A stretch of DNA of 52,593 bases, filler included, from Jimgerdemannia flammicorona (taxonomy: Eukaryota), in NCBI GenBank assembly GCA_003990765.1. It is 2 parts of 2 records of this genome, joined end to end, with 100 filler letters (N's around TTAATTAATTAA, not from the genome) between each part and the next. Parts side by side here need not be neighbours in the genome. Positions count along the whole stretch, not along the records: positions 1 to 26,247 come from RBNJ01000746.1; 1 more part is not named here. The stretch is one strand, 5' to 3'. Below, piece after piece: positions 1,746-34,019 of this stretch (position 1 is its first letter; every line of letters begins with the position of its first letter). The notes beneath the pieces were generated by a model. The model searched no databases. It was not told where the DNA came from and was given only the letters and a program-made list of their open reading frames with translations. Position numbers and translations under genes: made by a program.

Positions 1746-2207
1746 TATAATAAATTATTATATATATCTACAAGCTACTGGAAATTCTAATGGAAATTTC
1801 TATAAAAATTTCTATAAAAATTTCTACAGAATTTCTGACTAGTAGTCATAGTTACTCAAAATAGTATAAATATATATATATATTCAATATATCATATTTA
1901 GTTATAGTCTCAAATATATATAAATACTCTCTATACTGAGTATATTGTAACCTCAGCTCCACTTTCTCTGAATATACAAATAAAGTAGTATTTTTATTAC
2001 AGAACTCTCAGATCTGACTTGTTAATAATTTTAAGCCTAATTAACTTAAGATATAAATATAGTACTTCTATCAGTATAAGAACCTGAAAGCAATATCTAA
2101 ACTCTATCTTAATAAGTAATTGAAACTCAATACTTCCTTATAAGAACTTAGAACTTAGGGCTAATAGTTAGTTTGATTATCTATAATGTATTAATTCTAT
2201 TGTTATA
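1746..2207 (+). repeat. Possible degenerate 3' LTR of the chromovirus relic
   Basis: Purine tract AAAGAAGAGAAGAA just upstream, TATAAT start and GTTATA end (TG..CA after hypermutation), internal ~13-bp tandem repeats (AAATTTCTATAAA) at ~1780-1840. No partner LTR in window. Confidence 0.3.
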
Positions 2208-2437
2208 TAGTTTTATTATATATATATTGTCATGTAGTGGTTGCTGAGTCCTTCAAATATACCAGATTCTCTTCAAGGTATATCTCTTAGACTAACTCAA
2301 GTTTGTTATAAGCAAGTTCTTATTGGAGTGCCTTCCCAAGGTCTTATAGTCCTCAAACTTCTTATCTTTAACTGTCTTGTTATCTCTTAGATTGCTTGCA
2401 AGGAAGTGTGTATAAGTGAAACCAGAACTTGACTGAC

Positions 2438-2470
2438 TTTATTTCAGAAGAAATAAGGGGAGTATTTATA
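2438..2470 (-). promoter_or_regulatory. LTR genomic-RNA TATA box (TATAAAT, 2464-2470) and poly(A) signal (AATAAA, 2438-2443)
   Basis: GTATAAATAC followed ~20 nt later by AATAAA; conserved in all five family-A LTRs; the same TATA context occurs in family B. Confidence 0.7.
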
Positions 2471-2572
2471 CAAAATATAATTTAATAGTTGCTAAGATAT
2501 AAAGCTAAATATAAATTACAATAACTAAAACTACTAAGTTCCAGGGCTGGCACTGATGGTTGTACAGGTTCA

Positions 2573-2700
2573 GAATACTGGTATTATTTAGTGTCACATC
2601 AAAATACCAGTACTGGAACAATTTCGCATCACCTCAGAATACCAGTGCTGGCATTATCTAGTATTATATGAGAATACCAGTACTGGTATTATTCAGTGTA
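2573..2700. repeat. Array of palindromic motifs in U3 (AATACCAGTACTGGTATT-like, ~33 bp period)
   Basis: Perfect 18-bp palindrome at 2673-2690 plus degenerate copies near 2612 and 2638 and a half-site near 2574; repeated in the other LTR at ~9805-9932. Confidence 0.8.
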
Positions 2701-2709
2701 ATAAAGAAC

Positions 2710-3522
2710 TTAGAGCAGAAAGTTCAGGGCTTCATCATCATCATCATCACTGAAGAAGATGAGATCTGCAAATTCGTCATATAGGTCATGCATTTCACGT
2801 ACTTCAATGTTGTATGGGATGACATCATCACCAATGATGTCAATATATTCAGCTGTGGTGGAGAAATCAGGAACAAGATCTGGAGCTCTCCAGTTTATGA
2901 GGTTCTCTTCCACAAAATAGGGAACAAATGTAGGGTCTTGAAGAGGTCTAACCTGGATGCTTGGGCCTTGGAATACTGAGATCAATCCTTGCAGGAACTG
3001 GTCTGGGTTGTCCTGAAGGATAGGGTGCCAGAAGTCTTCTACTTCTTCACTGTTGAGGGTGATAGTGGACTGGGCTTCTGTAGCCACCCTGGCTTCTAGT
3101 GCATTGATACAGTGGGATGATAGGTCTCTGAAGTCTGAGACTCTGACATACTCCAAGTTGGGGATCGACCATGGTACATGTCTGAAGATCTGATAGATCT
3201 TCTTAGCTGTCCTCATTTTGTATATATCCATGAGAGTGGCATCTTGTAGCTCTTGGATGCTGGCCTGTGGAAACTCCTGGCAGAGAAGGTTTCCTATTTC
3301 ATACTCCTGCCACATTTGGAGGTATTCGGTAGCAATGGTGATCCTTGTTTCCATTTCACAGTGGTAGAGAATGAAGTGATAAGGGTCTGTAGTACTCAGG
3401 TTGACACTAGAAGTCCTTCTTGAGCAGGTCCCTATGGCTCTTCTGATATCTTGGAACATCCTTTCCTTGATCGAGATACCTTGGTGATTCCTTGACCTTG
3501 AGGTTTAGCAGGTAGCAGGCAT
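2710..3522 (-). pseudogene. LTR(U3)-encoded accessory protein, ~270 aa, acidic C-terminus; single premature stop
   Basis: The 249-aa ORF extends in frame to ATG 3522 across one TAA (3505-3507) that is CAA in the sister LTR; ends FSDDDDDEALNFLL. Confidence 0.85.
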
Positions 3523-3602
3523 TTTGTTTATGGTAAGTCTTTGAGCTATTTTGGGATTGGTGGTTCTTGTTGGTTGCTGCTACTGTGGTTCCTTGATCCT
3601 TC

Positions 3603-3646
3603 TTTTATATTCTTCAGGATGCTTATATTGTGGTCACAATGACTCA
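3603..3646 (-). promoter_or_regulatory. Internal promoter of LTR gene: TATAAAA (3603-3609) and TGACTCA site (3640-3646)
   Basis: TATA ~80 nt upstream of the ATG with A/C-rich leader; TATA conserved in all family-A LTRs; TGACTCA is the AP-1/Gcn4-type consensus. Confidence 0.65.
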
Positions 3647-3764
3647 CAGTTGGTCATCATTGCTCATCTCATATACTGTATGATCTTCTTGTGCTCTGCT
3701 CTGGTGGCTTGCAAGGAAAGACTGTCTCCTGTGCTGATGTTATCATTCTGGGGTCACCATTACA

Positions 3765-3774
3765 TCTTCCTCCT
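3765..3774 (-). other. Polypurine tract of copy A1
   Basis: Minus-strand purine run (AGGAGGAAGA) directly 5' of the 3' LTR; equivalents next to 18917 and at 49205-49214. Confidence 0.85.
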
Positions 3775-4077
3775 GAATAAGGATCTTTCTGAGTGTCCTT
3801 ATTCATTGGTCCAGTCCTGAAAAATTTGCTGATCCCATAACCTCTGACAAGGGGTCGAAAAGTGGTATTTATGGACTGATGTCTTCTCTTTGTATTTTGG
3901 TATAATAGTGAAGAGTTGCTTCCTTCATATAGAGCAAGAACTTGATTTTGATCTTGACCAATCAGTTGATGGTTTGAACTCCTCTGACTTCGAAAGTCTC
4001 ATGAATGAGTAGTTGTCAGTGCCATATCTCTTAGAGAATGGTCCAGACAGATAGCCTGCTGGTCATGGGACATGCTG

Positions 4078-5323
4078 TTACAATTCACGGCCTAGAACCT
4101 CATGGGCAGTCATCATGTTTTGCTTCTCTTGTATAGGTTTGTGGTACTTCTTGAGTCTGTTCCTATGTACCATAGTAGGCAGTATGGTCTCTGAGATTTT
4201 CTAAGCTAGAAGATAGTTCCCTTGATATCTTGTACATAGAAGGGTCCTTCCCATTTGGGCTCCAGTTTTCACAATCATGAGGCTTCTACTATATTTCAAT
4301 ACAGTAGAACCTTTTCTCTGATTTGGATGGGCTCTAGGGCCTTGTAATTCTTTTCTACATTCTTCCTTATCAGTGCTTGTGACTTAGTGATGTAATCTTC
4401 AGCCTTCTTCCTGATTTGGTGTAGTCTCTGGATTTCTGCATCAATCTGTCTCCAAGTTAGGTCTAGATTTGTGGCTGAGGTTCTATTAGAATCTTCTTCT
4501 CCAAAGAGTAGCTCTCTTAGAGTAAAATGTGTACTCTGTGACCATATATCTCATAGGACAGAGAGGGCAGTTGGGAGATAGTTATCCCAATTCTCATATA
4601 TCTCTGAGATCTTTGCTAGAATGTTCTTGAGAGTCTTGTTGATTCTCTCTATCTGTCCATTTCCTTGAGGGTGGTACACAGTGGTCTTGATGTATTAGAT
4701 TTTGTATTTCTGATACATTATCTTATGGAATCCATTGACAAATTCTGTTCCATAGTCTGTTGTGATTTGCTTTGGTGTCTTGTAGTGGCAGAGGATTTCT
4801 CAGTAGAGGAATTCAGCTATAGAGAGGGCATTGGCTTCTTGTAATGCTCCTGCCTCTATCCATTTGGTGAAGAGGTCTACAATAACTATAATATAGCAGT
4901 TTCCTGATAGTGTTACTGGTAGTGGTCCAATGATATCCATTGTGATGTGGTGGAAGGGGATAGGCTCAATTATTGATGACCCAGGTGTCTGGTCTTACTG
5001 ATCTTATTTCTGTTTTTGGCACTTATCACACCCTTTGACAAATTGGCACAGATCTTCTTCCATCTTGGGCCACCATATGGTTCTTCTTGCCTTGTTGTAT
5101 GTGTTGGTTCCTCCTAAGTATCCTTGCTCATATACTTCCTTCATTACTTGATACTTCTTGTGTTTGGGTATTACTAGCTTCCTTCTTTTCTGAGTGTAGT
5201 GTTGTCTAATTCAAACTGTTTCCAAGTCCAGTTGATGATGGTGATTGTCCAGGGTTTGAGGTGGTTGGGCATCTTCTGCTGCCCAAGATAGCTGATTAAT
5301 CCATAGTATAGCTCCTTATTCAT
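4078..5323 (-). pseudogene. Integrase (HHCC zinc-binding, core, GPF/Y module), copy A1
   Basis: WWPKMEEDLCQFVKGCDKCQ, MDIIGPLP, VDLFTKW, TTVYHPQGNGQIERIN, KLEPKWEGPF motifs; several stops and indels; no chromodomain seen. Confidence 0.9.
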
Positions 5324-6560
5324 GTTGAATAGTCTTAATGGGGGTATTTTGGAGTGTCCTTGAGAGTGCATCGGTATTGGTATTGGTCTTTTCTGAGTGG
5401 TGCTTGACAGTACAGTCATACTCTTGCAGCCTGTAGATCCATCTGGTATATATTCCTTTGGAGTTCAGAGTGTGGAATAGCCAGGCAAGAGCAGAATGGT
5501 CTGTTTGAATAGTGAAGTATTTTCCAGCTAGGTAGTAGTGGAACTTATCTACTGCCCAAACTACTGCTAAGTATTCAAGCTTACATGACTCATAGTTCTG
5601 TTCTACTCTGCGGGTACCTTGGCTTATATAGGAGATGACATATTCATGTCCATATTTCTTCTGAGCTAGGACTGCTCCAAGTCCTATAGCACTCACATCT
5701 ATCTGCAGAATGAATTCTAGGTTCCAGTCTGGTCTTCTGAGGATAGGTGCTTGGGTCAATCTGGTCTTGAGTTCATTGAAGGTTTCTTGGCACTCCTTAG
5801 TTCATTCAAATTTGGTCTCCTTCTACAGTAGCTCATAGATAGGTACTATAATGTTGGAGTATCCTTTGATGAATCTTCTGTAGTAGCTGGCCAGTCTAAG
5901 GAAGGCATGGACTTCTGTAGTTGTTCTGGGTCTTGGGTAGACTGCAATAGCCTCGATCTTCATGGGGTCTGTGTGGATTCTGGTCTGGTTGGTGAGGTAT
6001 CCTAGGTAGGTGATTTCTTGAGCTGCAAACTTACATTTCTTGTGCTTGATGTAGAGGCCATGCTCCTTGAGCCTCTTGAGGGCTAGCTGTATGTGATTGA
6101 CATGTTCCCATATAGTGTTGCTGAAGATGATCACATCATCAACATAGACAAAGAGCCATTTTCCAATCTCATTGCTGAAGACTCTGTTCATCATTTGCTG
6201 GAAACTTGCTGGGGCATTGCACATTCCAAATGGCATTTGCAGATAGATATAGGTGGCATCAGGTGTGATGAAGGCTGATTTCTCACTGGCATCTTGAGTG
6301 AGATCAATCTGATGGAAGCCTGAAAACAGATTCAAGATGGTGTAGTATTTGGCTTCGCTTCCAAGGGTGGTAAGGATTTCTTGAATATTTGACAAGGGCT
6401 GCCTATCCTTCTTGATGATAGCATTGAGCTTTCTGTAGTCAATGCAGAGTCTTGGTGCAAACTCTCCAGGCTTGCTTCCTTTCTTTGGGGCTAGAACAAT
6501 GGGTGAGGCCCAGGGGCTGATAGCTTGCTTGATGATTCTGGCTTCTTCCATTTCCTTGAG
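5316..6560 (-). pseudogene. Reverse transcriptase + RNase H, copy A1
   Basis: SPWASPIVL, RLCIDYRKLN, MPFGMCNAPASFQ, YVDD; RNase H D.S..GLGAVL, TDHSAL, DALSR. Confidence 0.97.
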
Positions 6561-6829
6561 TTTGGCTCACAGCCACTCTCTGTAGGCAGGTGGTATGGGT
6601 CTGGCTTTCTGGTAGATAAGCTTAGTATCACCAGTGTCAACTTCATAGTAGTACTTGGGTTCTTGATTATAGATATCCCTAAAGTCTGTAGCAAGTACTC
6701 CTTTGTTCTGGTGCAGAATCTTGAGAAGTTGTTCCTCCAGGGGAAAGTTTTCTCCAATGGTATATGTGTGCTTGTTCTGGTCCTTGTCTTTCTTGTGCTC
6801 AAGTTCGGTAATCTTGGTGGTGGCATAGG

Positions 6830-7254
6830 CTCCTCTTCCATTAGATCCAAAGCCTTGTTCTCCTCTCTTGGTCTTGATGAGTTTGATGGCTTCTATGATC
6901 TTGGGCTTCTTGATTTCGTGGATCAGCATCTGGCCAATCCTATCATACTTCTTGACTTCGAAGGGGGTGGTGTGGTTGTGATTTCTGACTATAAAGAAGA
7001 TCTCACCAGTGTAATCAGAGTCAATTACTCCTCCTTTAACTGAGATTTTGCTTTTGGCCAGACTGCTCCTGGTCTTGATAATTCTGGCATGGTTTTCTGG
7101 TAACTTAACTCCAATTCCAGTACCAAGTAGGGTGGTGGTCTGTGGTTTGAGGGTAGCATCTTGAATGCTGACAAGGTCTATTTCTATGGCTCCTTCAGTC
7201 TTATATTCTGGGATCTTGGCTTCAGGGTGAAACTTCTTGACCTTGAGGGTGATG
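6830..7254 (-). CDS. dUTPase domain within pol, between protease and RT
   Basis: Five trimeric dUTPase motifs in order: GAIEIDL, RSSLA, GGVIDSDYTGE, DRIGQMLI, RGEQGFGSNG; same frame as PR and RT. Confidence 0.95.
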
Positions 7255-7616
7255 TCTGATTCTTGTTCCTCCTCATCTTCACTGTTAGCTTGAAGCTCTG
7301 GGGGCTGGTCATCTTCTTTGGCTTTCCTTTTTGCTTCGGTGGCTTCTTGCTCATGTTTCTGTTGGTGGATTTTCCTGACTTCACTGATACAGGACCAGCA
7401 GTCATTCAGGTGTTCGGAGTAGTACATTCTAGTACCATAGGGGCATCTTCCTTGAGGGGCATACCCATTGATGATCTTGTTGTACCACTGCTCATCTGTA
7501 AGCTTGGGTGTCTTGCTCTTATTCTTGTTCTTATTCACTGAGTACATGAAGACCTCTGTGTCTTCATCTCCTTCCTCTATGTCTGGTAGGACTCCTTTGT
7601 GGACATTGATAGAGAC

Positions 7617-8084
7617 TCATATCTTTCTTCCTCTATAGTTGATCTGCATCTTCTGAGCATTGAGGTCAATGATGGCCTTGGCCTTATAAAGCCATTGGTT
7701 GCCAATGAGGATGTCATAGTTGGTGGTGCTTGTAACAATCATGTCTACTGAGATGGTAGCTCCTCCTATCTTAATGGGGACTTCTTGAATTTTGCCAAGG
7801 AGGGTAGCTCGTGTACCATCTGCTGTAACATAGACCATCTTGGTGGACTCTTCAATGTCCCAACCTAGGTGGTCAATTGCCTTCTTGCTTATGAGGCATC
7901 CTCCAGCACCAGTTTCAATGATGGCATCAAAGATATAGTCTTTGATCTGGCAGGGGGTATAGGCTGATGTCTTGTGCTGGTCTTTGGATTCTTCACCTGA
8001 GTTCTCAGATTCTTCCTGTGCATTATGAGCTTCTACAATCTTATACTCTTGATTCTTGGCAATAGTTGCAAGTCCTACTCTCAA
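7617..8084 (-). pseudogene. Retropepsin aspartic protease, copy A1
   Basis: DAIIETGAGGCLIS (DT in copy A2) and YDILIGNQWL motifs. Confidence 0.9.
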
Positions 8085-8195
8085 CTGCTGTCTGAAGACA
8101 GGGACTTCAGCTAGCTGTCCAAAAGTGGCATTGACCTTCTGTTCCTTGAGGTCCTTGTAGATGTCATACTAGTGGATCTTGGTCTTGCACAGCTT

Positions 8196-9406
8196 CTATT
8201 CCTTCTTGCTTTCACTTTCTTCTGAGACTGGAGTAGTGCCTTCTATGATTTGGCAGGCAGCTTCATCTAACTCCATATCTTGATCAATCTCCTCAGGTTG
8301 AGTCTTGCTTTGAATAGTGATAGCTGGGGTCTTCTTTGGTCTTCCAACTGGCTTGCTATTGCTCTTCTTGTCATAGGGCTTGGACCAGGTTCTAGTACCT
8401 TCAGTAGCAGGATAGAATTCAAGCTCCTCATAGTATTCTTCATCATCAGTGTCACTGATCTCCTCAATGACTACTGCATTGGTTTGTTCTCTGGTTCTAC
8501 TAGTATTGCTTGATTGGGCTTTGCATCTTGTTTCGGTCATGCAACTCTTTGCATAGTGGCCTTCTTCTCCATATCTGAAGTATATAATATTGCATTCTTC
8601 TGTAGCAGCTGCAAATCTCTGCACTGGTCTCCTGTTAGCACTTCGGACTTCTCTAACAACATTACCAAGGTGTGCAGTCATCTCAGTAAACTGCTTGGCG
8701 AGTTCCTCCACTGGGTCAGCTTTGGCTATCTTGGGGGTAGGTGGGGTTGGTTGTCTGTTTATGACTGTGGCAGGTAAGATACTAGTGGCTTTGATGGCTT
8801 CATCTTGATGCCAGTTATTTTCTCCATTAAGTATTCGGCAGGGTGTCTGGCAGTCTAATATCTCTGTACAAAGACCACTTTCTGATCAAGGGTCAGTGCA
8901 GCTGGGGTAGACCAGATTGCTAGGGCAATTTTAGGGTGAACTTCTTTGAGGAAGGTTGTATCCACTATTTGTTCCTTAAGGTGGTCATCATAGCCAGTCA
9001 AGATAATCTGATGGCAAATTCAGATATAGAATGAGTTGGGATCTTCACTAAGTCCCTGGCAGATAGTATTGAGTTGATCCTTGAGAGCTTACTTGATCTC
9101 TTCAGTATATATATTGTTCTGAGAAAGATCTTCATGTTGGCAAGTTTGGCTACACCAGCATTAGCAATGGTGGCTGCATTAAACTTGTCTCTGGCAGGTC
9201 CTCTAAGGCTGACTGGTAGAAGGGCCAATTGAGCATCCACACCAAGGACTTGTATGGTGGCAAATTGTTCAAAGTCTTCAATGAAGGTCAGGATTGACTC
9301 TTTAGTAGTATATCTATAGAATGTCGGGGGATACATTTCCATCTTATCTTGAACTCTTGTAGGGGTAACTCTTGTAGTCAGAGTAGTTGTTGTGGGGGTT
9401 GTTCAT
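8196..9406 (-). pseudogene. Gag (capsid-like + CCHC zinc knuckle), copy A1
   Basis: PPTF...FIEDFEQFA...LRGPARDKF capsid-like segment; YFRYGEEGHYAKSC is CX2CX4HX4C after two G>A changes; start approximate. Confidence 0.85.
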
Positions 9407-9441
9407 TTTTCAGCTTGAAAGTGAGGAATTCATCTTGAATC

Positions 9442-9459
9442 ACCAGCCAATAGATACCA
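9442..9459 (-). other. Putative primer-binding site
   Basis: TGGTATCTATTGGCTGG 3 nt after the 5' LTR end (copy A2: TAGTACCCATTGACTAG); cognate tRNA not identified. Confidence 0.6.
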
Positions 9460-9462
9460 AGT

Positions 9463-11005
9463 TGTCACATAGTGGTCGCTGAGTCCTTCAAATATGCCAG
9501 ATTCTCTTTAAGGTATATCTCTTAGACTAACTCAAGTTTGTTATAAGCAAGTTCTTATTGGAGTGCCTTCCCAAGGTCTTATAGTCCTCAAACTTCTTAT
9601 CTTTAACTGTCTTGTTATCTCTTAGATTACTTGCAAGAAAGTATATATAAGTGAAACTGGAACTTGACTGACTTTATTTCAGAGGAAATAAGAGGAATAT
9701 TTATACAAAATATAATTCAATGGTTGCTAAGATATAAAGCTAAATATAAATTCCAATAACTAAAACTACTAAGTTCCAGGGCTGGCACTGATAGTTGTAT
9801 AGGTTCAGGATGCTGGCATTATTTAGTGTCACATCAAAATGCTAGTGCTGGAACAATTTTGTGTTACCTCAGAATACCAGTACTGGCATTATCCAGTGTT
9901 ATATGAGAATATCAGTGCTGGCATTATTCAGTGTAACAAAGAACTTAGAGCAGAAAGTTCAGGATTATGGGGGCTTCATCATTATCATCACTGAAGGAGA
10001 TAAGATCTGCGAATTTGTTATGCAGGTTGCGCATTTCACATACTTTGATGTTGTGTAGGATGACATCATTGCTGATGATGTCATCACATTCAGCTGTGGC
10101 AGGGAAATCAGGAATAAGATCTGGAGCTCTCTAGTTTATGAGGTTCTCTTCCACAAAATAGGGAACAAATATGGGATCTTGGGGAGGTCTAACCTGGATG
10201 CTTGGGCCTTGGAATACTGAGATCAATCCTTGTAGGAACTGATCTGGGTTGTCCTGAAGGATAGGGTACCAGAAGTCTTCTACTTCTTCGCTGTTGAGAG
10301 TAATAGTGGACTAGGCTTCTATAGCCACCCTGGCTTCTAGTATATTAATATGGCAGGATGACAGATCTCTGAAGTCTGAGACTCTGACATACTCTAAGTT
10401 GAGGATCGACTATGGTGCATGCCTGAAGATCTGATGGATCTTCTTAGCTGTCCTCATTTTGCATATATCCATGAGAGTGGCTTCTTGTAGCTCTTGGGTG
10501 CTGGCCTGTGGGAACTCCTGGCAGAGGAGGTTTTCTATTTCATACTCCTGCCACATTTGGAGGCATTTGGTAGCAATGATGATCCTTGTTTCCATTTCAC
10601 AACAGTAGAGAATGAAGTGATAAGGGTCTGCAGTACCCAGGTTGATACTAGGAGTCCTTCTTGAGCAGGTCCCCATGGCTCTTCTGATGTCTTGGAACAT
10701 CCTTTGCTTGACCGAGATACCTTGGTGATTCCTTGACCTTGAGGTTTGGCAGGCAGCAGGCATTTCATTTATAGTAAGTCTTTGAGCTATTTTGGAATTG
10801 GTGGTTCTTGTTGGTTACTGCTACTGCAGTTTCTTGATCCTTCTTTTATATTCTTCAGGATGCTTGTACTGTGGTCACAATAACTCACAGTTGGTCATCA
10901 TTGCTCATCTTGTATACTGTATGATCTTCTTATACTCTGATCTGGTGGCTTACAAGGAAAGGCTGTCTCCTGTACTGATATCATCATTCTGGGGTCACCA
11001 TTACA
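9463..11005 (-). repeat. 5' LTR of copy A1
   Basis: Direct repeat of 2228-3764 differing mostly by C/T and G/A transitions. Confidence 0.95.
9945..10763 (-). pseudogene. LTR-encoded accessory protein, second copy
   Basis: MPAACQTSRSRNHQG...; TGG>TAG stop at 10410-10412 where the sister LTR has W; same LNFLL* end. Confidence 0.85.
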
Positions 11006-11840
11006 ATATATAAACTAAATAGTTCAAAATAATAAAATTAATTAAATAAGTCAAATAATATATATATTATATTAGCTAATATCTAGAGTGAAAAATCAGT
11101 AATTTAAAATATAAAATAACTATTTTTCAAAAATCTGACCTTTTTTAAAAACATAACTTTTTTTTATTTTAAAAAACTTAATCTTTTTTTAAAATTCTAA
11201 CTTTTTTTTTTTAAAAGGTTTATTTTATATATATCTTTATCTATATGCTAAAATCTTAAACAAAGCTCACAAATATATCAGCAATATTTTCTCTTAAATA
11301 AGATTCTGATAGCTTGATAAAACTAATTAATATATAGTTGAGATATTAATTTTAATAAATCTAATATATATTAATTTTAAGAAATATATATATGTTGAGT
11401 AATATCTATATATTAATAGTGAAATATTTAATCAGATATATATTCTATTTCTAAATAAATTAAATTGAAATAATATTAATTTGAAGATATTTAACTTTAA
11501 AATATTTAAATTAGTATTTAATATCAAAATATTAAATCTTATCTGTAGTATAATTTTGACATTATTATAATTTTATTGAAAGGCCAGTCTAATTTTATTT
11601 CATATAGTTCTAGTAGAAAAAATAGTAATATCTAGTTTCAGAAGACAAAAAAAGATCTCCTACTTCTAAATTCTCAACAACTATAAAAAGCTGATTATTA
11701 TAGATAATCTAGCAAACAAGCTTGTTCTGAAATAACTTTATTTGCTATTTTAGAGAATTATCAAATAACAATAAATTAATAAGAAAAGAAAAAGAAAAAG
11801 AAAAAGAAAATGGATAAGTTATATAAAAATCATACTTTTG

Positions 11841-11915
<75 letters not shown>

Positions 11916-12045
11916 ATCACTCCCACTTGATAACTCTTATTGGAATTTGTCAAAATGTGCTCACAAATTTGTTGCTGAGCTACCAATAGCCTTATATGAT
12001 ACTTTACAGTAGTTACATTTGATTTGGATATCTCCATTTTCCTTA

Positions 12046-12930: not shown

Positions 12931-15308
12931 TCATTTGCGCGCCACCAGTCTGATGTTCACATTTTCGACCATAGACGTGAATTGCGCGCGCTCGCGTGCG
13001 GGCGTCGCAGACGGCGGTGAAGGCATGAGCTGCACGTTGAAGCGGGAGACGGAAATGATGAGGAAAAACATAATCTCGAGGGTCGCCAGATGTCGGCCGG
13101 GGCAGATGCGGGGGCCTGGTGAGAGGAAGGAAGGAATGTTGGTGAGGCGGAGGCGATACACGATAATAAAGGTATGACATGAAGTACCTTGGCAAAAAGG
13201 ATTGGAAAGCTTACCTCCACCCTGGATGTGCCGAAAGGAGCAAGTGTTTAGAACGAAATAGAGGGAGAGGAATGTCAAATGAATAAATTTGAGATCACAG
13301 GAGCAATCCACAAGAATGGATTATTTTACTAATATGAAACAATCCAAAAATATCACATACAAAACCATAAGCATTCTGCGCCATGATCTTTTTCTCTTCG
13401 TCTGTACACTCTATCCACCTCTCGGGCTTAAATTCGAACGGATCCCTCGTCGGGCAGCTCCTCAACGAAGCGGGGCGGTACAGATGCACCATAATGGTTC
13501 CTTTTGGCAAGACATGTCCATCAAGGATCGTGTCCTCGTTGGATTCAACCATCTGGAGTGGCGCCACTGAATATAGCCTCATACTTTCCCGCATGACCCC
13601 GTAGGTGTATGGAAACTGTACGGTTGGGTCTTGGTGGAAGAACTCCGTCAGATCTGAGGTCGAGGTTGAGACCGCCAAGTCTCCCAGAATGGAGTCTACC
13701 TCAGAATGGAATCGCGCTTGGACGGTAGGATTACAGGCAAAGGCGTAGAGAATGTTGTTCATCGTGTTGGCGGTGGTGTCTGTATAGGATGGAATATGGA
13801 ATGTGGAATTTGAAGTGTTAGGGATCATAATAATATTTCTTTTAAATGAAATTGCTCTTGATCACACAAATGTAACCAACCATATCCAGCAATGATGACT
13901 TGGATCAGATTCCCTTTGATCTGCTCCAACGTTAATCTGCTCGCCTTTTCTGCCGACCTCGCCAGTTCAGCGTCTTCAAAATCGTCCCCTTCCCCAACCT
14001 TCTCGTACAGCAGCGATTCCAGCAGTGTGTTTATATGGCCCTCGTCCTTTCTCTTCCCGTTTTCTTTATCCTTTCTTATACTCTCGGCAATGTTGTCAAT
14101 GACCTCGTTCACGAGCGTGACGGCTTTATTGGCATCGCGGTCGCTTGCCGTGCTGTAGAAGCGCCACGTCGAGAGTGGGGTTACGAGGTGATGGTTGATG
14201 GTTGCCAGCACTTTTTGGATTAGATTAATCATATCAGGGGGGACGAGCTCGTCTTTACCTGGATTCCGCAAACAATTGTGTGGTACATGTTAAATGAAGT
14301 TCGAGGTGTATTGTGATCTCCCCAGTCGGCGCAACATCTACGTACCATGCGCGAACGCGTAATTGATAATAACTGCCAACGCGCGGTCGCTGAACTCGGA
14401 CCAGACTGGTGAGAGCTCCTTCGGGTTGTAGAAGACGCGGTCGGTGTGCTTCTTCCCCACAGCAGAGCTCACATGGTCTTCCTTTGGAAACCACTTCTCG
14501 TAAGTGATTTGGTGGTTCTTAGCGTGCTCGTCGAGCCGCTCGCGCAGAAGTAGCGCGTGATGGATGACCAATGACTTGCTCCGGGCGACCTTCCCCGGCG
14601 CGAACTGCGGCGCGATCCATTGCCGTGATTGCTTCCAGTCGGAAGCTGTGATTGGAGGATGTACGGGCAAGGATGAATCGTTAGTTGGCAGCTATAGCGA
14701 TATTTGGGCGGCTATTACCAACACCTTGAAATGAATGGAGTTGGTGTATAGGGAGTTTTGGAACTTACCCTCGGAGGAGAACAGTCCGTGCGTTCGTAGT
14801 TCTTTGAATAACGATATAAGTTTTGTCGTGCGACTGTAGCGATTCGGTCGTTCTTTGAGCTGTTGGTTGATTATGTCAGGATCGGACAAAACGATCCATT
14901 CTACTCCCGGCATCTTGACCTTAAAAATCGGGCCATATTCCCTAATAGGAAGAGATCGAGAGAGTTAATTAAAGCAATTAACCGCCATTCGTCCATGAGA
15001 GTGCAACAAAATCACCCCCCCCCCCTCTACCTATTTCTTTCTATTTCTCTCCACCCCATCTTTGGTTCTGGTACTTACCAAGACCATTGCTCCAGCTGTA
15101 ATGGAAAATAGTTGGGATTTATCTGAAGTAGGTTTCCGAGAATGGGAATTCCTGGGGGTCCGGGGAAAATCTCCTTGGATTGTTTCTTGCTGAAAGATCG
15201 CCAGTAACTCAGGAGTGCGATGGCGGCGGTAGCCAATGACATGACACCGAGAGTGACAGTAATGTTGGGGGTGACGGAAGCAAGATGGGCATTGGGTGCG
15301 AAAGACAT
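12931..15308 (-). CDS. Cytochrome P450, 7 exons, 563 aa
   Basis: Exons 15308-15079, 14941-14769, 14645-14346, 14258-13881, 13779-13361, 13221-13215, 13115-12931, all with GT..AG introns, total 1692 nt. TM anchor + PGPPGIPILGNL, AGYDTT, ESMR, KPERW, FGGGPRICPG. Confidence 0.95.
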
Positions 15309-17222: not shown

Positions 17223-17807
17223 GGGCCTTGAACTGCTGTTTGGAGGTTTTTCGAGAGTTGGGGGACTGTCATCAAATAAACATGCGTCAGTTGTGGCTGA
17301 ACCGAACTGTACACAGAAATTTGTGGCTCGCGATTAAGTATATATTGTCACATAGTGGGCGCTGAGTCCTTCAAATACATCAGATTCTTTTCAAGGTGTA
17401 TATCTCTTAGACTAACTACAAGTTTGTTATAAGCAAGTTCTTATTGGAGTGCCTTCCCGAGGTCTTATAGTCCCCAAACTTCTTATCTTTAAACTGTCTT
17501 GTTATCTCTTTAGATTGCTTACATGGAATTGAATGTAAGTGAACTAAGGGAACTGACTTTATTTCAAAGAAAATGAGAGGAGTATTTATACAAAATATAA
17601 TTCAATGGTTGCTAAGATATAAAGCTAAATATAAATTCCAATAACAAAATAAATAAAATACTGGAACACAGAAAACTTCAGTTATAAGTACAAATTTGAG
17701 TGTCTATACAAATAGTTGCACAAGTTCAGGATGCTAGTAGATTTCAGTTGTACAAGAAAAGGATGCCAGAAGATTTAGATGTTCAGATAAACAGTTACAC
17801 AAAGAAC

Positions 17808-18658
17808 TCAGAGCAGAATGTTCAGGATCCTGGGGGCTTCATCTTCATCACTATTATTAAGGTTAGAGATCAGAGACAGGATGTCTTCAAAGGAGATAAG
17901 ATCAGTAAATGTTTCATCTGTTTCACATATGTTTTGCATTTTGCATACTTCACACATGTTGTCAATTAGCAAGATGACATCATCACATTCAGCAGTGGCA
18001 AGGAGAGCAAGGAGATCAGGGGCTCTCTAATTGATAACATTCTCTTCTACAAAATAAAAGACAAATATGGAGTCTTGGAGAGATCTAACCTAGATACTGG
18101 GACCTTGGAATACTGAGATCAATCCTTATAAGAATTGATCTGAATTGTCCTGGAGAATGAGATTCCAGAACTCTTCTATCTTATCACTATTGAGAGTAAT
18201 GGTGGATTGGGCTTCTATGGTCACTATGGCCTCTAGTATATCTGTACAGTAGGCTGACAATTCTTTGAAGTCTGAGACTCTGGTATACTCCAAGTTGGGG
18301 ATTGACTATAGTGCATATCTGAAGATCTGATAAATCTTCTTAGCTATCCTTATTTTATATATATCTATAGGGATAGCATCTTATATCTCTTGGAGACTGG
18401 TCTGAGGGAATTCCCAGAAGAGAAGATTTCTATTTTATACTCCTACTATATCCAGAGGTATTCAGTAGTGATAGTGATCCTTGTTTCCATTTTATAGTAG
18501 TAGAGGATAAAGTGATAAAGGTCACTAGTATCCAGATTGAGGCTAGAAGTCCTTCTGGTGTAGGTCCTTATAGCTCTTCTGATATCTTGGAATATCCTTT
18601 TTTAGACTGAGGGGCCTTGGTGGTTCCTGGATCTTGAGGTTTGGTGAGTGGTAAGTAT
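17808..18658 (-). pseudogene. LTR-encoded accessory protein, copy A2 3' LTR
   Basis: Homologous to 2710-3522; ATG>ATA, multiple stops; ends ILNILL*. Confidence 0.8.
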
Positions 18659-21600
18659 TTTGTTTATAGTGAGTCTTTGAGTTATTTTGGAGTTTTAAGA
18701 GTCTTGTTTGATTTGCTACTGCTATAGTTCCTTAGTCTTTCTTTTATATTTCTTGAGATATCTATCTTGTAGTCATAATGACTTATGGTTGGTCATCATT
18801 ACTCATCTTATAGCCTGGGTGAGTTATGCTATATAATCTTCTTGTGCTCTGATCTGATGGCTTATAAGAAAAGACTATCTCCTGTAATGATATCACTATT
18901 CTGAGATCACTATTACATCTTTCTTCTAAATAAGGATCTTCTCTTGAACATTCTCATTCATTGGTCTAGTCTGAAAATTTGCTAATTTCATAATCTCTGG
19001 CAGGAGGTCAAAAAGTGATATTTATGGGCTAGTATCTTCCTTATATATTTTAGTATAATGGTGAAGAGTCACTCTCTTCAGAGTAAGAGCCTAATTCTGA
19101 TCTTAACTAATCAGTTGATGGTTTGAACTTCTCTGGCTTTGAAAGTCTTATGGATGAGTAGTTGCTAGTACCATATCTCTTAGAGAATGGTCCAGACAGA
19201 TTGCCTGCTGGTCATAAGACATATTGTTACAATTTGTGGACTAGAACCTCATAGGTGATCATAATATTTTACATCTCTTATATGGGTTCATGGTACTTCT
19301 TGAGTGTGTTCCTATATACTATGGTAAGCAGTATGGTCTCTGAGAGTTTTCTAAACCAGAAGATAGTTCTCTTGATATCTTGCATATAGAAGGGTCCTTC
19401 CCATTTGGGCTCTAGTTTTCATAACCATAAGACTTCTACTATATTTTGATATAGTAGAACCTTTTCTCTAATTTGAATAGATTCTAGAGTCTTGTGATTC
19501 TTTTCTACATTCTTCCTTATTAGTACTTATGACTTGATGATATAATCTTCTGCCTTCTTCTTGATTTGATATAGTCTCTGGATTTCTGAGTCAATTTATC
19601 ACTAAGTTAGATCTAGATTTATAGCTGAGGTTCTATCAGAATCTTCTTCTCTGAAGATCAGTTCTCTTGGAAAAGTGTGTACTCTATAATTGTATATCTT
19701 ATAAGAAAGAGAGGGCAGTTGAGAGGTAGTTATCCCAATTCTTATATGTTTCTGATATCTTAGCCAGAATGTTCTCAAGGGTCTTGTTAGTTCTTTCTAT
19801 CTATCTATTATTTTATAGAATCTGTTGACAAATTCTGTACCACAGTCTATAGTAATTTGTCTTGATGTCTTATTGTAGCAGATGATTTCTTAATATAGGA
19901 AGTTAGTAATAGAGAGAGCATTGGCTTCTATAATACTCTTACTTATATCTATTTGGTAAAGAGGTCTACAATAACTATGATGTAGTAGTTTTCTGATAGA
20001 GTTACTGGTAGTGGTCTAATGATATCTATTATAATGTAATAGAAGAGAATAGATTTGATTCTTGATAATCTGGATGTCTGGTCTTGCTGATCTTGTTTCT
20101 GTTTTTGGCACTTATCATACTTTTTGACAAATTGGCACAGGTCTTCTTCCATCTTAGGCCATCACATAGTTCTTCTTATCTTGTCATATATATTGGTTCC
20201 TCCTAGATATCTTTGTTCATATACTTCCTTCATTACTTGATACTTCTTATTTTCAGATATTATGAGTTTTTCTCCTTTTCTGAGTATAGTGTTGTCTAGT
20301 TCAAATTGTTTCCAAGTCTAGTTAATAATAGTGATAGTCCAGGGTTTGGAGTAGTTGGGCATCTTCCACTACCTAAGATAGCTGATTAATCTATAGTATA
20401 ACTTCTTATTTATGTTGAATAGTCTTGATGGGAGTATTTCAGAGTATCCTTGAAAGTGCATCAGTATTGGTATTAGTTCTTCCTGAGCAGTATTTGATAG
20501 TACAGTTATACTCTTGTAGTCTGTAGATCTATCTAATATATATTTCTTTGGAGTTCAAAGTGTGGAATAGCTAGACAAGAGCAGAGTAGTCTGTTTGAAT
20601 AGTGAAGTATTTCTCAGCTAGATAGTAGTAGAACTTATCTACTGCCCAAACTACTGCTAAGTATTTGAGCTTGCATGACTTATAGTTCTGTTCTGCTCTG
20701 TAGATACTTCAGCTTATATAAAAGATAACATATTTATATCCATCTTTCTTCTGAGCTAGCACTACTCTAAGTTCTATAGTACTTATATCTGTCTGTAGGA
20801 TGGACTCTAGATTTCAATCTAGTCTTCTGAGGATAGGTGCTTGGGTTAACCTAGTCGTGAGTTTATTGAAGGTTTCTTGACATTTCTTAGTCCATTCAAA
20901 TTTGGTCTCCTTCTTCAGTAGCTTATAGATAGGTGCTATAATATTAGAGTATCTTTTAATAAATCTTCTATAGTAGGAGGCCAGTCCAAGAAAGATATAG
21001 ACTTTTGTGGTTGTTCTTGGTCTTGGATAGGCTACAACAGCCTCAATATTCATAGAGTCTATATGAATTCCAGTCTGGTTGATAATGTGTTCTAGGTAGG
21101 TGATTTCTTGAGCTATAAACTTATACTTCTTGGGCTTGATATAGAGGTCATACTCCTTGAGCTTCTTGAGGGCTAGCTGTATATAGTTGATATATTTCCA
21201 TGTAGTATTACTGAAGAAGATCATATCATCAATATAGACAAAGAGCTACTTTCTAATATTATTACTAAAGACTCTGTTCATCATTTACTAAAAACTTACT
21301 AGAGTATTACATATTCTAAATAGTATTTGCAGGTAGACATAGGTGGTATCAGATGTGATAAAGGTTGATTTCTCACTGGCATCTTGAGTGAGACCAATCT
21401 GATAGAAGTCTGAGAATAGATCTAAGGTAGTATAGTATTTAGCTTCATAAGGATTTCTTGAATATTTGACAAGAGCTGCCTATTCTTCTTGGTAATTGTA
21501 TTGAGCTTTCTATAATTAATACAGGGTCTTGGGGAAAACTCTCTAGACTTACTTTCTTTCTTTAGAGTAAGGACAATGAGTGAAGCCCAGGGGCTGATAG

Positions 21601-24600: not shown

Positions 24601-24991
24601 TACAAGTTTGTTATAAGTAAGTTCTTATTAGAGTATCTTCTCAAGGTCTTATAGTCCTCAAACTTCTTATCTTTAAACTATCTTATTATCTCTTTAGATT
24701 GCTTATGTAGAATTAAGTATAAGTAAACTGAGGAAACTGACTTTATTTTAAAGAAAATGAGAGGGGTATTTATATAAAATATAATTCAATAGTTGCTAAG
24801 ATATAAAGCTAAATATAAATTTCAATAACCAAATAAATAAGATATTAGAACATAGAAAACTTTGGTTGTAAGTATAAATTTAAGTATCTGTACAAATGAT
24901 TGCATAAGTTTAGAATACTGGTAGATTTCAGTTGTATAAGAAAAGGATACCAAAAGATTTAGATGTTCAGATAAACAGTTATATAAAGAAC

Positions 24992-25843
24992 TCAGAGCAG
25001 AATGTTCAGGACTCTAGAAGCTTCATCTTTATCACTGTCATTAAGGTTAGAGGTTTGGGACAGAATGTTTTCAAAGGAGATGAGATCAGCAAACATTTCA
25101 TCTATTTTGCATATATCATGCATTTTGCATGCTTTGCATATGTCATCAATTAATGGGATAACATTATTACATTCAGCAGTAGCAGAGAGAGTAAGGAGAT
25201 CAGAGGCTCTCCAATCTATGACATTCTCTTCTACAAAATAAGAGATAAATGTGAGGTCTTGGGAAGGTCTAACCTGGATGCTGGGACCTTGGAATACTAA
25301 GATCAATTCTTATAGAAATTGATCTAGATTGTTCTGAAGAATGAGATTCTAGAACTCTTCTATCTCATCACTATTAAGAGTAATGGTGGATTAGGCTTCT
25401 GTGGCCACCATGGTCTCTAGTATATCTGTATAGCAGGCTGACAATTCTTTGAAGTCTAAGACTCTGGTATACTTTAAGTTGGAAATTGATCATAGTACAT
25501 ATCTAAAGATCTGATAAATCTTCTTAGTTATCTTTATTTTATATACATCTATAGGAGTGGTATCTTGTATCTCTTGGAGACTGGCCTGAGGAAATTCCCA
25601 GTAAAAGAGATTTTCTATTTCATACTCCTGCTATATCCAGAGGTATTTGGTAGTAATAGTGATCCTTGTTTCCATTTTATAATAGTAGAGGATAAAGTAA
25701 TAAGAGTCACTAGTACCCAGGTTGAAACTAGGAGTCCTTCTGGTATAGGTTCTCATGGCTCTTCTGATGTCTTGGAACATTCTTTCTTGGACTGAGGGGC
25801 CTTGGTAGTTCTTGGACCTTGAGGTTTGATGAATAGTAGATAT
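24992..25843 (-). pseudogene. LTR-encoded accessory protein, copy A2 5' LTR
   Basis: ORF-track piece 24992-25306 (VFQGPSIQVRP...VLNILL) matches the A1 protein. Confidence 0.8.
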
Positions 25844-26015
25844 TTTATTTATAGTAAGTCTTTGAGCTATTTTGAGATTTTGTAAGTCTTGTTTGAGTTG
25901 CTGCTACTATGGTTCCTTAGTTCTTCTTTTATATTCCTTGAGATGTCTATCTTGTAGTTGCAATGACTCATGGTTAGTCATCATTGCTCATCTTGTAGCC
26001 TGGGTGAGTCATGCT

Positions 26016-26016
<1 letters not shown>

Positions 26017-26092
<76 letters not shown>

Positions 26093-26094
26093 TT

Positions 26095-26148
<54 letters not shown>

Positions 26149-26247
26149 TTTTACAGACTCTATGTCCTGTAGATTTTTATTGGAAGGAAACCTAGACTAT
26201 ATAGGCCAAATCCCTCTCCCACCACCCATCAAGCTCTGCTTTCTCAT
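26017..26247 (-). mobile_element. 3' end of a non-LTR element (AATAAA + long poly(A) tail) abutting the A2 LTR
   Basis: Reverse complement matches ~30415-30530 (GGCCTATATAGTCTAGGTT...CCAATAAAAATC). Confidence 0.75.
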
Positions 26248-26347
26248 NNNNNNNNNNNNNNNNNNNNNNNNNNNNNNNNNNNNNNNNNNNNTTAATTAAT
26301 TAANNNNNNNNNNNNNNNNNNNNNNNNNNNNNNNNNNNNNNNNNNNN
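26248..26347. other. Assembly gap with synthetic TTAATTAATTAA linker
   Basis: N-run / TTAATTAATTAA / N-run; stop codons in all six frames. Confidence 0.95.
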
Positions 26348-33992: not shown

Positions 33993-34019
33993 AGATCATC
34001 TGATAACAAAATATATTTC

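Follow-up and report, generated by a model that had tools for sequence, protein, structure and literature searches.

The LTRs of a dUTPase-bearing Ty3/gypsy family of Jimgerdemannia flammicorona contain a genuine accessory gene. On balance we consider it probable that this is a complete gene of ~270 codons from an orphan family, that it lies in U3 behind its own TATA box, that it may encode a regulator acting in trans, and that the copies found here were killed by repeat-induced point mutation (RIP). The analysis covered one stretch of 52,593 nucleotides (the window), which carries five LTR copies of this family, termed family A.

Family A elements and the ORF within their LTRs

Family A has the backbone order gag-PR-dUTPase-RT-RNaseH-IN. 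Along the minus strand of element A1, Pfam matches appeared in the order RVP_2, dUTPase, RVT_1, RT_RNaseH, Integrase_H2C2 and rve, and the internal region contained many RIP-type stops. The gag(CCHC)-PR-RT-RNaseH-IN order, direct TG...CA LTRs, a polypurine tract (PPT) and a primer-binding region place the family in Ty3/gypsy (Metaviridae). The following features were located.

2228 to 3764, minus strand: A1 3′ LTR, 1537 bp, TGTAATGG...ATGACA (blastn, boundary alignment and motif coordinates)
3765 to 3774, minus strand: PPT AGGAGGAAGA, directly upstream of the A1 3′ LTR
3775 to 9462, minus strand: A1 internal region with gag (CCHC), protease, dUTPase, RT, RNase H and integrase (six-frame translation and Pfam)
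9463 to 11005, minus strand: A1 5′ LTR; the primer-binding region comes next, from 9462 downward
17346 to 18917, minus strand: A2 3′ LTR (tblastn, copy alignment and motif coordinates)
24532 to 25993, minus strand: A2 5′ LTR, 5′-truncated, abutting a long poly(A) run
49215 to 50876, plus strand: fifth LTR (A3), preceded by internal sequence (about 140 bp or more)

The A1 LTRs read TGTAATGG...GTGACA, are about 1.54 kb long and showed 90.6% identity in blastn (2227-3764 vs. 9462-11005). The 5′ LTR is followed by TTGGTA... on the primer-binding side. The A1 LTR boundary is fixed because AGGAGGAAGA precedes the 3′ LTR and is absent upstream of the 5′ LTR. Similarity of the two LTRs begins exactly at TGTAATGG (3764 and 11005), with the PPT before the 3′ copy; the LTRs therefore occupy 2228-3764 and 9463-11005. 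The LTR start is thus at 3764, just after the PPT at 3774-3765, and not near 3660.

A sense ORF of ~270 codons was found wholly within the LTR in all five copies. When the intact homologue P0002 was used as a tblastn query, the ORF was detected at five places in the window.

2710 to 3522, minus strand (tblastn 3522-2713): ORF copy of the A1 3′ LTR, 270 codons plus stop
9945 to 10763, minus strand (tblastn 10763-9948): ORF copy of the A1 5′ LTR, three internal stops
about 17808 to 18658, minus strand (tblastn 18643-17811): ORF copy of the A2 3′ LTR, frameshifted by a 1-nt deletion, many stops
about 24992 to 25843, minus strand (tblastn 25843-24995): ORF copy of the A2 5′ LTR, five internal stops
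about 49473 to 50370, plus strand (tblastn 49473-50367): ORF copy of the A3 LTR, frameshifted and heavily mutated

The ATG of the A1 3′ copy lies 243 nt inside the LTR. This copy has a single premature TAA at 3507-3505, and its frame is open across 2710-3504. Containment in the LTR and an hhalign probability of 0.04 against the element's gag agreed with the sequence-only reading that a complete gene is enclosed in the LTR and is neither gag nor pol. Origin of the ORF by duplication of that gag or of a 423-aa ORF at 26292-27563 was rejected (hhalign probabilities 0.04 and 0.06, respectively).

The stops of the two A1 copies had been described as complementary. They do not overlap, and the ancestral frame was open, as had been claimed; however, the 5′ copy has three internal stops rather than one. 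Placing C or G at each transition difference between the A1 LTRs restored an open frame of 272 codons. Transitions accounted for 125 of the 130 differences between the A1 LTRs, 87 of the 125 in CpA context, and for 199 of the 206 differences between the A2 LTRs, 116 of the 199 in CpA context. Such CpA-biased transitions between sister LTRs are the RIP pattern. The five copies in the window are pseudogenes inactivated by RIP.

Candidate promoters and expression of the LTR gene

Signals around the ORF, with coordinates for the A1 3′ LTR, were as follows.

3640 to 3646, minus strand: TGAGTCA heptamer, 37 nt upstream of the first TATA box
3602 to 3609, minus strand: first TATA box (box 1), TATAAAAG, located 87 nt 5′ of the ATG and present in 5/5 copies; candidate promoter of the LTR gene
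2576 to 2697, no strand assigned: 35-nt tandem repeat, 3.5 units (A1), 3′ of the stop codon in a variable zone
2463 to 2470, minus strand: second TATA box (box 2), TATAAATA, putative promoter of the genomic RNA, present in 5/5 copies
2438 to 2443, minus strand: AATAAA, 27 nt 3′ of box 2, with another 210 nt to the LTR end; present in 5/5 copies

TATAAAAG, TATAAATA and AATAAAGT occur in identical order in all five LTR copies. The layout that the sequence-only reading had ascribed to every LTR thus held for both TATA boxes and AATAAA; TGAGTCA is intact in 2/5 copies and represented by transition variants in the remaining three, and TRF called no tandem repeat downstream of the stop in A3. TGAGTCA is an AP-1/Gcn4-type heptamer. 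The A2 repeat consists of two 32-nt units, and transversion divergence of the variable repeat zone was 9-12.6%. A bacterial promoter/terminator scan was discarded as irrelevant for a eukaryote.

TATAAAAG is also present about 80 nt 5′ of the ATG in L001, an intact metagenomic relative, and the leader AAAGACTTACCAYAAACAAA(G)ATGCCTGC is near-identical there despite only ~43% protein identity. The proposal that the ORF has its own TATA box was thereby strengthened. The gene probably lies in U3, to judge from its position upstream of box 2 and AATAAA. It would be transcribed from box 1, with a start ~30-60 nt downstream (near 3580-3550), and its mRNA would end at the LTR's own AATAAA. In that case each LTR, solo LTRs included, would form a transcription unit of its own, ~1.1 kb long. 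The genomic RNA would begin after box 2.

A second reading also treats the gene as real but lets its expression follow that of MMTV sag or HIV nef. The ORF would be read off the 3′ portion of an RNA spanning the element, or off a subgenomic mRNA that is spliced and made by the genomic promoter, and TATAAAAG would not be a working promoter. By the anatomy of the LTR, the ORF is part of every genomic RNA that terminates in the 3′ LTR, and AG dinucleotides upstream of the ATG are potential acceptors. However, no conserved, positionally fixed acceptor was seen among them, and L001 has retained box 1 and its spacing from the ATG while the surrounding DNA diverged. Splicing of fungal gypsy RNA is, to our knowledge, not established, which also counts against this mode of expression. 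We regard it as unlikely.

Alternatively, box 1 could be the promoter of the genomic RNA itself. R would then be ~1.1 kb long, the ORF would be a leader gene at both RNA ends, and box 2 would be incidental. Of the two boxes, box 1 does match the TATA consensus better, and L001 conserves it. Such an RNA, however, must read through the AATAAA of the 5′ LTR, and gag would be translated behind an upstream ORF of 270 codons. Box 2 and AATAAA are moreover invariant in 5/5 copies and are followed by the 210 nt of highest conservation in the LTR, as in the usual arrangement of a U3 end followed by R-U5. This arrangement appears quite improbable. Transcription of the LTR gene from box 1, with box 2 serving the genomic RNA, is the reading retained here.

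Sequencing runs were searched with an LTR query. Among the 24 runs listed, mostly soil metagenomes, none was on record as RNA, and the best contained 0.23 of the sampled words. Runs X15, X20, X2 and X1, all four consisting of assembled contigs, which carry no information on RNA starts, ends, strand or levels, were compared with 2100-11100 at 80% likeness. In X15 and X20, for which an RNA origin is a guess, word depth was high on bins of the LTR, whereas in most internal bins it was close to zero; these are runs that the LTR query had selected. X15 contigs also extend from the LTR end into unrelated flanks, and no conclusion is drawn from the depth pattern. Word depth was even in X1, a soil DNA run.

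Homologues and coding nature of the LTR ORF

Environmental protein sets derived from soil metagenomes contained intact relatives of 247-342 aa with 29-85% identity. P0001 and P0002 are essentially un-mutated forms of subfamilies A1 and A2, respectively. A phmmer search of 1.84 billion cluster representatives gave 6 matches at E<=0.001, four of them at E<=1e-30; one of the 6 was dropped as a repeat artefact. A profile search found 12 proteins at E<=0.001 among 4756 candidates, including full-length forms of 271, 325 and 342 aa that all begin with MP(A/P)xR. The metagenome scan revealed one relative, L001, among 150 pattern matches; none was present among 16 pattern matches in viral_contigs or 23 in genome_contigs. 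Fused or longer forms of the protein were absent from 8000 scored candidates, a weak scope for this question. The family is small, previously undescribed and orphan.

L001 is a single DNA contig of 1535 bp with an intact ORF of 291 codons; neither LTR ends nor gag-pol were found within the contig. Across 211 codons aligned with the window ORF, 90 residues were identical, and identity at codon positions 1, 2 and 3 was 52.1, 64.9 and 38.4%. This order (2>1>3) points to conservation of the coding type. Within family A, C/G-restored A1 and A2 ORFs gave dN/dS of 0.33 across 258 codons. Subfamily-level indels in the ORF were 3, 3 and 33 nt long, and each 1-nt indel was private to one copy. Both checks, which had been proposed together with the sequence-only reading, favored a gene. 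Fixed transversions at codon positions 1, 2 and 3 numbered 15, 9 and 19, and codons with a single difference comprised 46 synonymous and 46 non-synonymous cases, suggesting a modest selection signal within the family. These sequence comparisons show that the LTR ORF truly codes for protein and that its coding sequence is conserved between lineages with identities as low as about 30-45%.

The homologues also gave a direction to the decay. For comparison, amino-acid changes that need C>T or G>A only make up 32 of 380 ordered residue pairs. From P0001 to the two A1 copies, 31/39 and 35/42 amino-acid differences required C>T or G>A, vs. 4 in each case for the opposite direction; the corresponding counts from P0002 to A2 were 65/89 and 8. 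In a distant clade, forward-only differences were 27/45 from P0014 to P0015 (5 reverse) and 11/16 from P0014 to P0017 (2 reverse). These three relatives thus also appear to be repeats exposed to RIP.

This decay bears on the suggestion that the ORF is a passenger, i.e. a host or foreign gene captured into the LTR together with its promoter, of no service to the element and with ordinary cellular genes as distant relatives. Among family A and the lineages of L001, P0010 and P0014, the ORF is shown to sit in an LTR for family A alone. The ORF also evolves faster than pol: transversion divergence was 3-4% in the ORF core vs. 0-3.5% (mostly about 2%) in pol, and the ORF core also exceeded the non-coding spacer before the LTR (1.0-1.3%). 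However, the 1.84 billion representatives yielded no annotated cellular-looking homologue, and the family consists of about a dozen proteins from short contigs. The one-directional RIP-type decay of the distant-clade members is what repeats show, and the frame was kept open in two diverged subfamilies, A1/P0001 and A2/P0002. We therefore give the passenger explanation little credence. That the ORF is not a gene, and that a long LTR rich in A and C just happens to contain an open frame, is highly improbable: the ORF has no known domain, its models are of low confidence and every local copy is broken, but homologues at E = 1e-33 to 1e-122 with intact frames in at least four clades, the codon-position pattern and the in-frame subfamily indels already contradict this reading.

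The protein, its possible role and known systems

The protein has a pI of 4.5-4.9. Its N-terminus is basic and rich in Ser, Thr and Arg (net charge of the first 50 residues, +7 to 0), and the last 60 residues carry a charge of -6 to -14. The acidic-hydrophobic tail noted in the sequence-only reading was recovered: the translation ends in ...YDEFADLIFFSDDDDDEALNFLL, and the tail is conserved as DLIxFxD ... LNFL. The absence of a signal or TM segment was likewise borne out, with no hydrophobic segment and a maximum Kyte-Doolittle 19-residue mean of 0.64-1.07 in four full-length relatives. Two independent AF2 runs placed helices at the same positions, at low confidence (mean pLDDT 43.2 and 46.6 with 14- and 17-row alignments). 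The protein is thus predicted to be an acidic, mostly helical, soluble orphan.

Pfam returned nothing above threshold for the window ORFs and 14 family members, with three sub-threshold chance rows among the 14, and a PDB profile search gave 0 matches at E<=10. In the fold check, Foldseek against PDB had a best E-value of 0.67 and TM <=0.19, values that are meaningless on a low-confidence AF2 model. The best ESM Atlas scores were 0.83 and 0.85, below the lead level of 0.9, and the Atlas model had a pLDDT of 0.35. Pfam, the PDB profile search and Foldseek on the low-confidence model therefore revealed no match to the Tas, Tax or Tat families by sequence or fold; similarity to Sag or a membrane-anchored glycoprotein was equally absent from Pfam and PDB, with all Kyte-Doolittle maxima at 1.07 or less. 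Regular expressions were used for two motifs. The 9aaTAD pattern matched 1-4 times per protein vs. shuffled means of 1.2-1.6, which is not above chance, and a match inside the DLIxF motif was found only in L001; the NES pattern was at or below shuffled expectation.

With low confidence, we propose that the product acts in trans for the element and regulates its expression. Among the individual roles, that of a transcriptional activator ranks first, itself less likely than not; roles as an adaptor in RNA export or RNA binding, or as an antagonist that counters host silencing, follow close behind. The domain, fold and motif searches gave the transactivator of the sequence-only reading no positive support. 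A more far-reaching version is rather doubtful: a fungal gypsy LTR may have turned into an autonomous pol II gene (promoter, ~270 codons and poly(A) signal), so that every LTR, solo LTRs included, is a coding locus, and the orphan protein may be a trans-acting factor that controls expression of the family or weakens host genome defence by silencing or RIP. Fungi would in that case have independently evolved a "complex" genome organisation in the manner of retroviruses.

The layout appears closest to the MMTV U3 ORF. In both, a complete sense protein-coding frame lies inside a long LTR, although the U3 placement in family A is positional. The sag frame is in U3 and therefore in both LTRs of the provirus. 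Sag is a superantigen anchored in the membrane; it belongs to a betaretrovirus of vertebrates, and spliced RNAs account for most of its expression. In contrast, family A has a RIP-competent fungal host, a dedicated TATA box before the frame, and a protein with no hydrophobic segment and no similarity to a known sequence or fold. The available literature text applies the term "LTR ORF" to sag or to the polyprotein ORFs of LTR elements.

A separate putative promoter and an acidic-hydrophobic tail recall foamy-virus tas/bel1 and HTLV tax. These are accessory regulators with a transcription unit other than that of gag-pol (an internal promoter in tas/bel1) and with an acidic activating region. Whereas the LTR gene is enclosed in its LTR, they are placed upstream of the 3′ LTR or overlap it; their products show no similarity to the LTR-ORF protein, whose 9aaTAD matches are at chance level. 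The brtn gene of Boty/BcGypsy1 in Botrytis cinerea is reportedly an antisense gene. Extra genes of that type would be antisense and internal; the LTR ORF is sense and inside the LTR. The LTR gene of Cassandra has its own promoter in each LTR, so solo LTRs keep the gene unit. It is a small pol III RNA gene of a non-autonomous plant element, in contrast to a pol II-type protein gene of an autonomous fungal element. The consulted part of PMC10886601 describes it as a 5S rRNA-like gene in each LTR of Cassandra TRIMs.

Additional ORFs of LTR retrotransposons, with function unknown, are described for fungal, plant and rotifer Ty3/gypsy elements in the accessible portions of PMC8365987, PMC2864245 and PMC5408684; by the descriptions in the first two, none is placed inside an LTR. 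Family A, with its dUTPase between protease and RT, resembles the dUTPase-bearing fungal gypsy elements Tmt1 of Tuber, PosPlaTy3-5 of Postia and those of Phanerochaete; the available text of PMC2864245 describes this arrangement for PosPlaTy3-5, notes a dUTPase in Tmt1 and mentions no LTR gene. A complete gene inside a fungal LTR was not reported in the full-text literature as far as it was available, including PMC10787394, PMC8365987, PMC12037069, PMC2864245, PMC12581995, PMC12910237 and 10.64898/2026.05.04.722472; the Tmt1 paper and Fig. S1 of PMC8365987 lay outside this scope and could bear on novelty.

The inside of an LTR is an unusual place for a protein gene. Genome annotation masks LTRs, which are usually regarded as control regions that code for nothing. 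With a conserved protein gene in the LTR, solo LTRs can stay coding loci, and gene dose of the protein tracks the number of LTRs rather than that of intact elements. Fungal retrotransposons can bear accessory genes of a retrovirus-like kind, which neither standard TE annotation nor standard gene annotation picks up. If the protein were a dispensable passenger, the finding would be a structural oddity of LTRs. Relatives of this orphan family come from protein sets derived from soil metagenomes, and its function could therefore reveal a new interaction between elements and fungal genome defence.

Structure of the element and its LTRs

The LTR gene under study, a sense frame of ~270 codons, belongs to a minus-strand Ty3/gypsy element, A1, and is contained in its 3′ LTR. 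Self-comparison of the window showed 90.6% identity between 2227-3764 and 9462-11005, and revealed further related LTR copies at ~17333-19051 and 24531-25993 and, inverted, at 49079-50883. Alignment of the LTR-upstream sequences fixed the true 5′ boundary: the likeness of the two A1 copies begins exactly at TGTAATGG (3764 / 11005). The 3′ copy is preceded by a polypurine tract, and the 5′ copy by unrelated AT-rich DNA instead. The LTRs end in ...GACA at 2228 / 9463, a primer-binding-type sequence (TTGGTA...) lies downstream of the 5′ LTR, and the two sizes are 1537 and 1543 bp. The boundary proposed in the sequence-only reading was ~95 bp too short on the 5′ side.

Features of the A1 3′ LTR copy and positions of the A2 and A3 LTRs
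3774-3765, minus strand: polypurine tract AGGAGGAAGA, directly before the A1 3′ LTR copy
3646-3640, minus strand: TGAGTCA
3609-3602, minus strand: first TATA box (box 1), TATAAAAG
3522, minus strand: ATG of the LTR ORF
3507-3505, minus strand: premature TAA in the LTR ORF
2712-2710, minus strand: stop codon of the LTR ORF
2697-2576: 35-nt repeat, 3.5 copies
2470-2463, minus strand: second TATA box (box 2), TATAAATA
2443-2438, minus strand: AATAAA
2228, minus strand: LTR end
17346-18917, minus strand: A2 3′ LTR
24532-25993, minus strand: A2 5′ LTR, first ~100 nt missing, adjoining a long poly(A) run
49215-50876, plus strand: fifth LTR (A3), preceded by a piece of internal sequence

Both TATA boxes, which had been described for every family-A LTR, were present in 5/5 copies together with AATAAAGT. 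The TGACTCA-like heptamer was intact in 2/5 copies, and the other three carry transition variants. The zone from the stop codon to box 2 varies by subfamily (32 nt x 2 in A2); a repeat array, claimed for all copies, was found in A1 and A2, and TRF called none in A3.

Read through many stops, the A1 internal region encodes gag with a CCHC knuckle, protease, dUTPase, RT, RNase H and integrase, in this order. Protease and RT are separated by the dUTPase domain (6567-7616, minus strand; Pfam E = 4e-27), as reported for a few fungal gypsy elements: PosPlaTy3-5 has dUTPase between PR and RT, and Tuber Tmt1 also carries one (PMC2864245).

The ~500 nt from the end of integrase similarity to the polypurine tract (3775-4300, minus strand) had no Pfam match and are the stretch in which A1 and A2 have diverged least (1.0-1.3% transversions). 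A 109-codon open frame (3669-3998) crosses the polypurine tract into the LTR. ATATAT on both A1 flanks is a possible target-site duplication whose information content is too low to count. The poly(A) run beside the A2 5′ LTR (~25994-26200) consists of roughly 190 A with a few other bases interspersed.

Relatives and coding nature of the LTR ORF

A word-indexed search (294 candidates) returned 5 homologues at E<=0.01. Exhaustive phmmer against 1.84 billion cluster representatives gave 6 at E<=0.001, four of them at E<=1e-30; one of the six, P0012, is a low-complexity repeat protein and was dropped. A profile search (4756 candidates) yielded 12 proteins at E<=0.001. The relatives, environmental proteins and one 1535-bp metagenome contig (L001), form at least four clades.

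Clades of relatives and their identity
Clade 1, the window's own: P0001-P0005, P0009, P0016; 69-85%
Clade 2: P0008, P0013, L001; about 43%
Clade 3: P0010; about 35%
Clade 4: P0011, P0014, P0015, P0017; about 30%

Full-length members have 271, 291, 325 and 342 residues, and every one starts with MP(A/P)xR. The core motifs W(Q/H)EYEI, AKKIHQ(V/I)FRH, LQDNPDQ(F/W)LQ and F(Q/E)GP(P/S)I and the tail motifs DLIxFxD and LNFL are common to the family. L001, the sole relative with DNA, has an intact 291-codon ORF. Its nucleotide identity with the window copy over 211 aligned codons was 52.1, 64.9 and 38.4% at codon positions 1, 2 and 3, the pattern expected for coding sequence.

The checks named in the sequence-only reading gave coding-like results: ORF indels common to A1 versus A2/A3 were 3, 3 and 33 nt, each 1-nt indel being private to a single decayed copy, and dN/dS between the restored A1 and A2 frames was 0.33 (258 codons). 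Within-family conservation alone would not prove much, because transversion divergence is higher in the ORF core (3-4%) than in pol (mostly about 2%) and the non-coding spacer before the LTR (1.0-1.3%), and fixed transversions by codon position were 15/9/19, a weaker point for selection. It is the distant relatives that establish the gene.

Scans of viral and prokaryotic genome collections found no relatives. Longer fused forms of the protein were not found either, which is weak evidence. A 423-codon open frame at 26292-27563 (minus strand) had no Pfam match, and hhalign showed it to be no relative of the LTR genes (probability 0.06).

Decay of the copies by repeat-induced point mutation

The two LTRs of one element are identical at insertion, so the differences between them postdate it. 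Transitions made up 125/130 of these differences in A1 and 199/206 in A2, and 87/125 and 116/199 of the transitions, respectively, were in CpA context on either strand. This bias is the signature of repeat-induced point mutation (RIP); on this basis we infer a RIP-competent host, a filamentous ascomycete.

The ORF has one internal stop in the A1 3′ copy and 5 to 15 in the A2 copies, and the A3 copy is frameshifted. One stop had been claimed for each A1 copy; this holds for the 3′ copy, and the 5′ copy has three. The accompanying claim of an open ancestral ORF was borne out: placing C/G at each A1 LTR-LTR transition difference gave a 272-codon frame free of internal stops. Restored likewise, A2 kept two stops, common to both LTRs, at TGG-type codons, which are preferred RIP targets.

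From P0001 to the two A1 copies, 31/39 and 35/42 residue differences are reachable only by C>T or G>A, and just 4 and 4 only in the reverse direction. For P0002 against the A2 5′ copy, the counts are 65/89 and 8. P0001 and P0002 share 79% identity and both frames are open. The window ORFs are therefore RIP-decayed forms of P0001- and P0002-like genes, and both local subfamilies have intact natural versions. In the distant clade, 27/45 differences from P0014 to P0015 (5 reverse) and 11/16 from P0014 to P0017 (2 reverse) are one-way, against a baseline of 32/380 reachable ordered residue pairs. Because such decay is what repeats undergo in RIP-competent fungi, this argues indirectly that these relatives, too, belong to repeated elements and are not single-copy genes of the host.

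GC content drops to 0.17 right upstream of the A1 5′ LTR (11006-12000), probably an older, exhaustively RIP-mutated repeat. Cytochrome P450 fragments (13295-14289, minus strand; Pfam E = 1e-19 and 5e-4) in a GC-normal island between the two elements resemble a host gene with RIP-mutated repeats on either side. Two copies of another RT-bearing element lie head to head (31888-37282 and 38385-43754; 70-77% complementarity) with extreme, mirror-image GC skew of about +0.5 then -0.5. The sense strand is G-rich and C-poor in both arms, suggesting strand-asymmetric C-to-T decay or an unusual native composition.

Proposed expression and possible role of the LTR gene

TATAAAAG lies 80 nt before the ATG in L001 and 87 nt before it in the window, and over the final ~27 nt of the leader (AAAGACTTACCAYAAACAAA, then ATGCCTGC) every window copy nearly matches L001. 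Because they are kept at only about 43% protein identity, box 1 and the leader are probably functional parts of the gene, conservation being the main argument. These ~27 nt (leader 3510-3545, minus strand; L001 350-383) are far more alike than the coding region. On the opposite strand AAAGACTTACCAYAAACAAA reads GGTAAGTC, a consensus 5′ splice donor; the stretch may act as a leader or translation element, or it may be an antisense-transcript signal.

Box 2 and the AATAAA 27 nt on are invariant, and the best-conserved 210 nt of the LTR come next. LTRs usually show this order of TATA, AATAAA and conserved stretch where U3 gives way to R-U5. On that reading, box 2 would drive genomic RNA, the ORF would sit in U3, and mRNA from box 1 would end at the poly(A) signal of the same LTR, giving an LTR-contained unit of about 1.1 kb. 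This transcript model is positional; the runs compared with the LTR are assembled contigs, none recorded as RNA.

The family proteins are acidic (pI 4.5-4.9). Net charge ranges from +7 to 0 (basic to neutral) over the Arg/Ser/Thr-rich N-terminal ~50 residues and from -6 to -14 over the last 60, which are acidic. As the sequence-only reading had stated, the protein is unrelated to the element's own gag and has no hydrophobic segment fit for a signal peptide or membrane anchor. In two AF2 runs, each with its own query, helices fell at matching positions, and after them came a small beta element and then a disordered tail; confidence was low (mean pLDDT 43.2 and 46.6). No Pfam family matched, no PDB sequence resembled the protein at E<=10, and Atlas scores were under lead level. 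The best Foldseek E-value, on a low-confidence model, was 0.67.

It is well supported that the ORF is a conserved gene, that it rides inside the LTR, that it has a conserved TATA box and leader, and that it encodes a soluble acidic protein. The observation behind the earlier proposal of an accessory gene is real, with boundaries and stop counts corrected; the gene's own promoter and its U3 placement are moderately supported, and the transactivator part is unsupported.

An element would retain an extra gene if the gene benefits it. Because the protein is soluble and acidic, its N-terminus basic and its acidic-hydrophobic tail conserved, it would best fit a nuclear trans-acting regulator. Activation of LTR promoters is a tentative first candidate, and well short of probable. 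An RNA-binding or export adaptor seems unlikely, and antagonism of host silencing or RIP is equally doubtful. Activation-domain and export-signal patterns did not score above shuffled controls. The remaining probability falls to structural, targeting or passenger roles.

In the full-text literature searched, no such LTR gene is described for fungi. Extra ORFs have been published for fungal gypsy elements (brtn in Boty/BcGypsy1 and unnamed "additional ORFs"), and the available parts of these papers do not place a complete gene inside the LTR (PMC8365987, PMC2864245). Cassandra elements, with a 5S RNA gene in each LTR (PMC10886601), come nearest as a precedent for an autonomous gene unit carried by an LTR. 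In layout the MMTV "LTR ORF" (sag) comes closest, being a complete gene in U3; it differs in protein type, host and expression and shows no homology. With foamy tas and HTLV tax the analogy is one of function only. The LTR gene is an accessory gene of a retroelement and occupies a sag-like position; its products form an orphan protein family, and in the window the gene persists only as RIP-killed relics.
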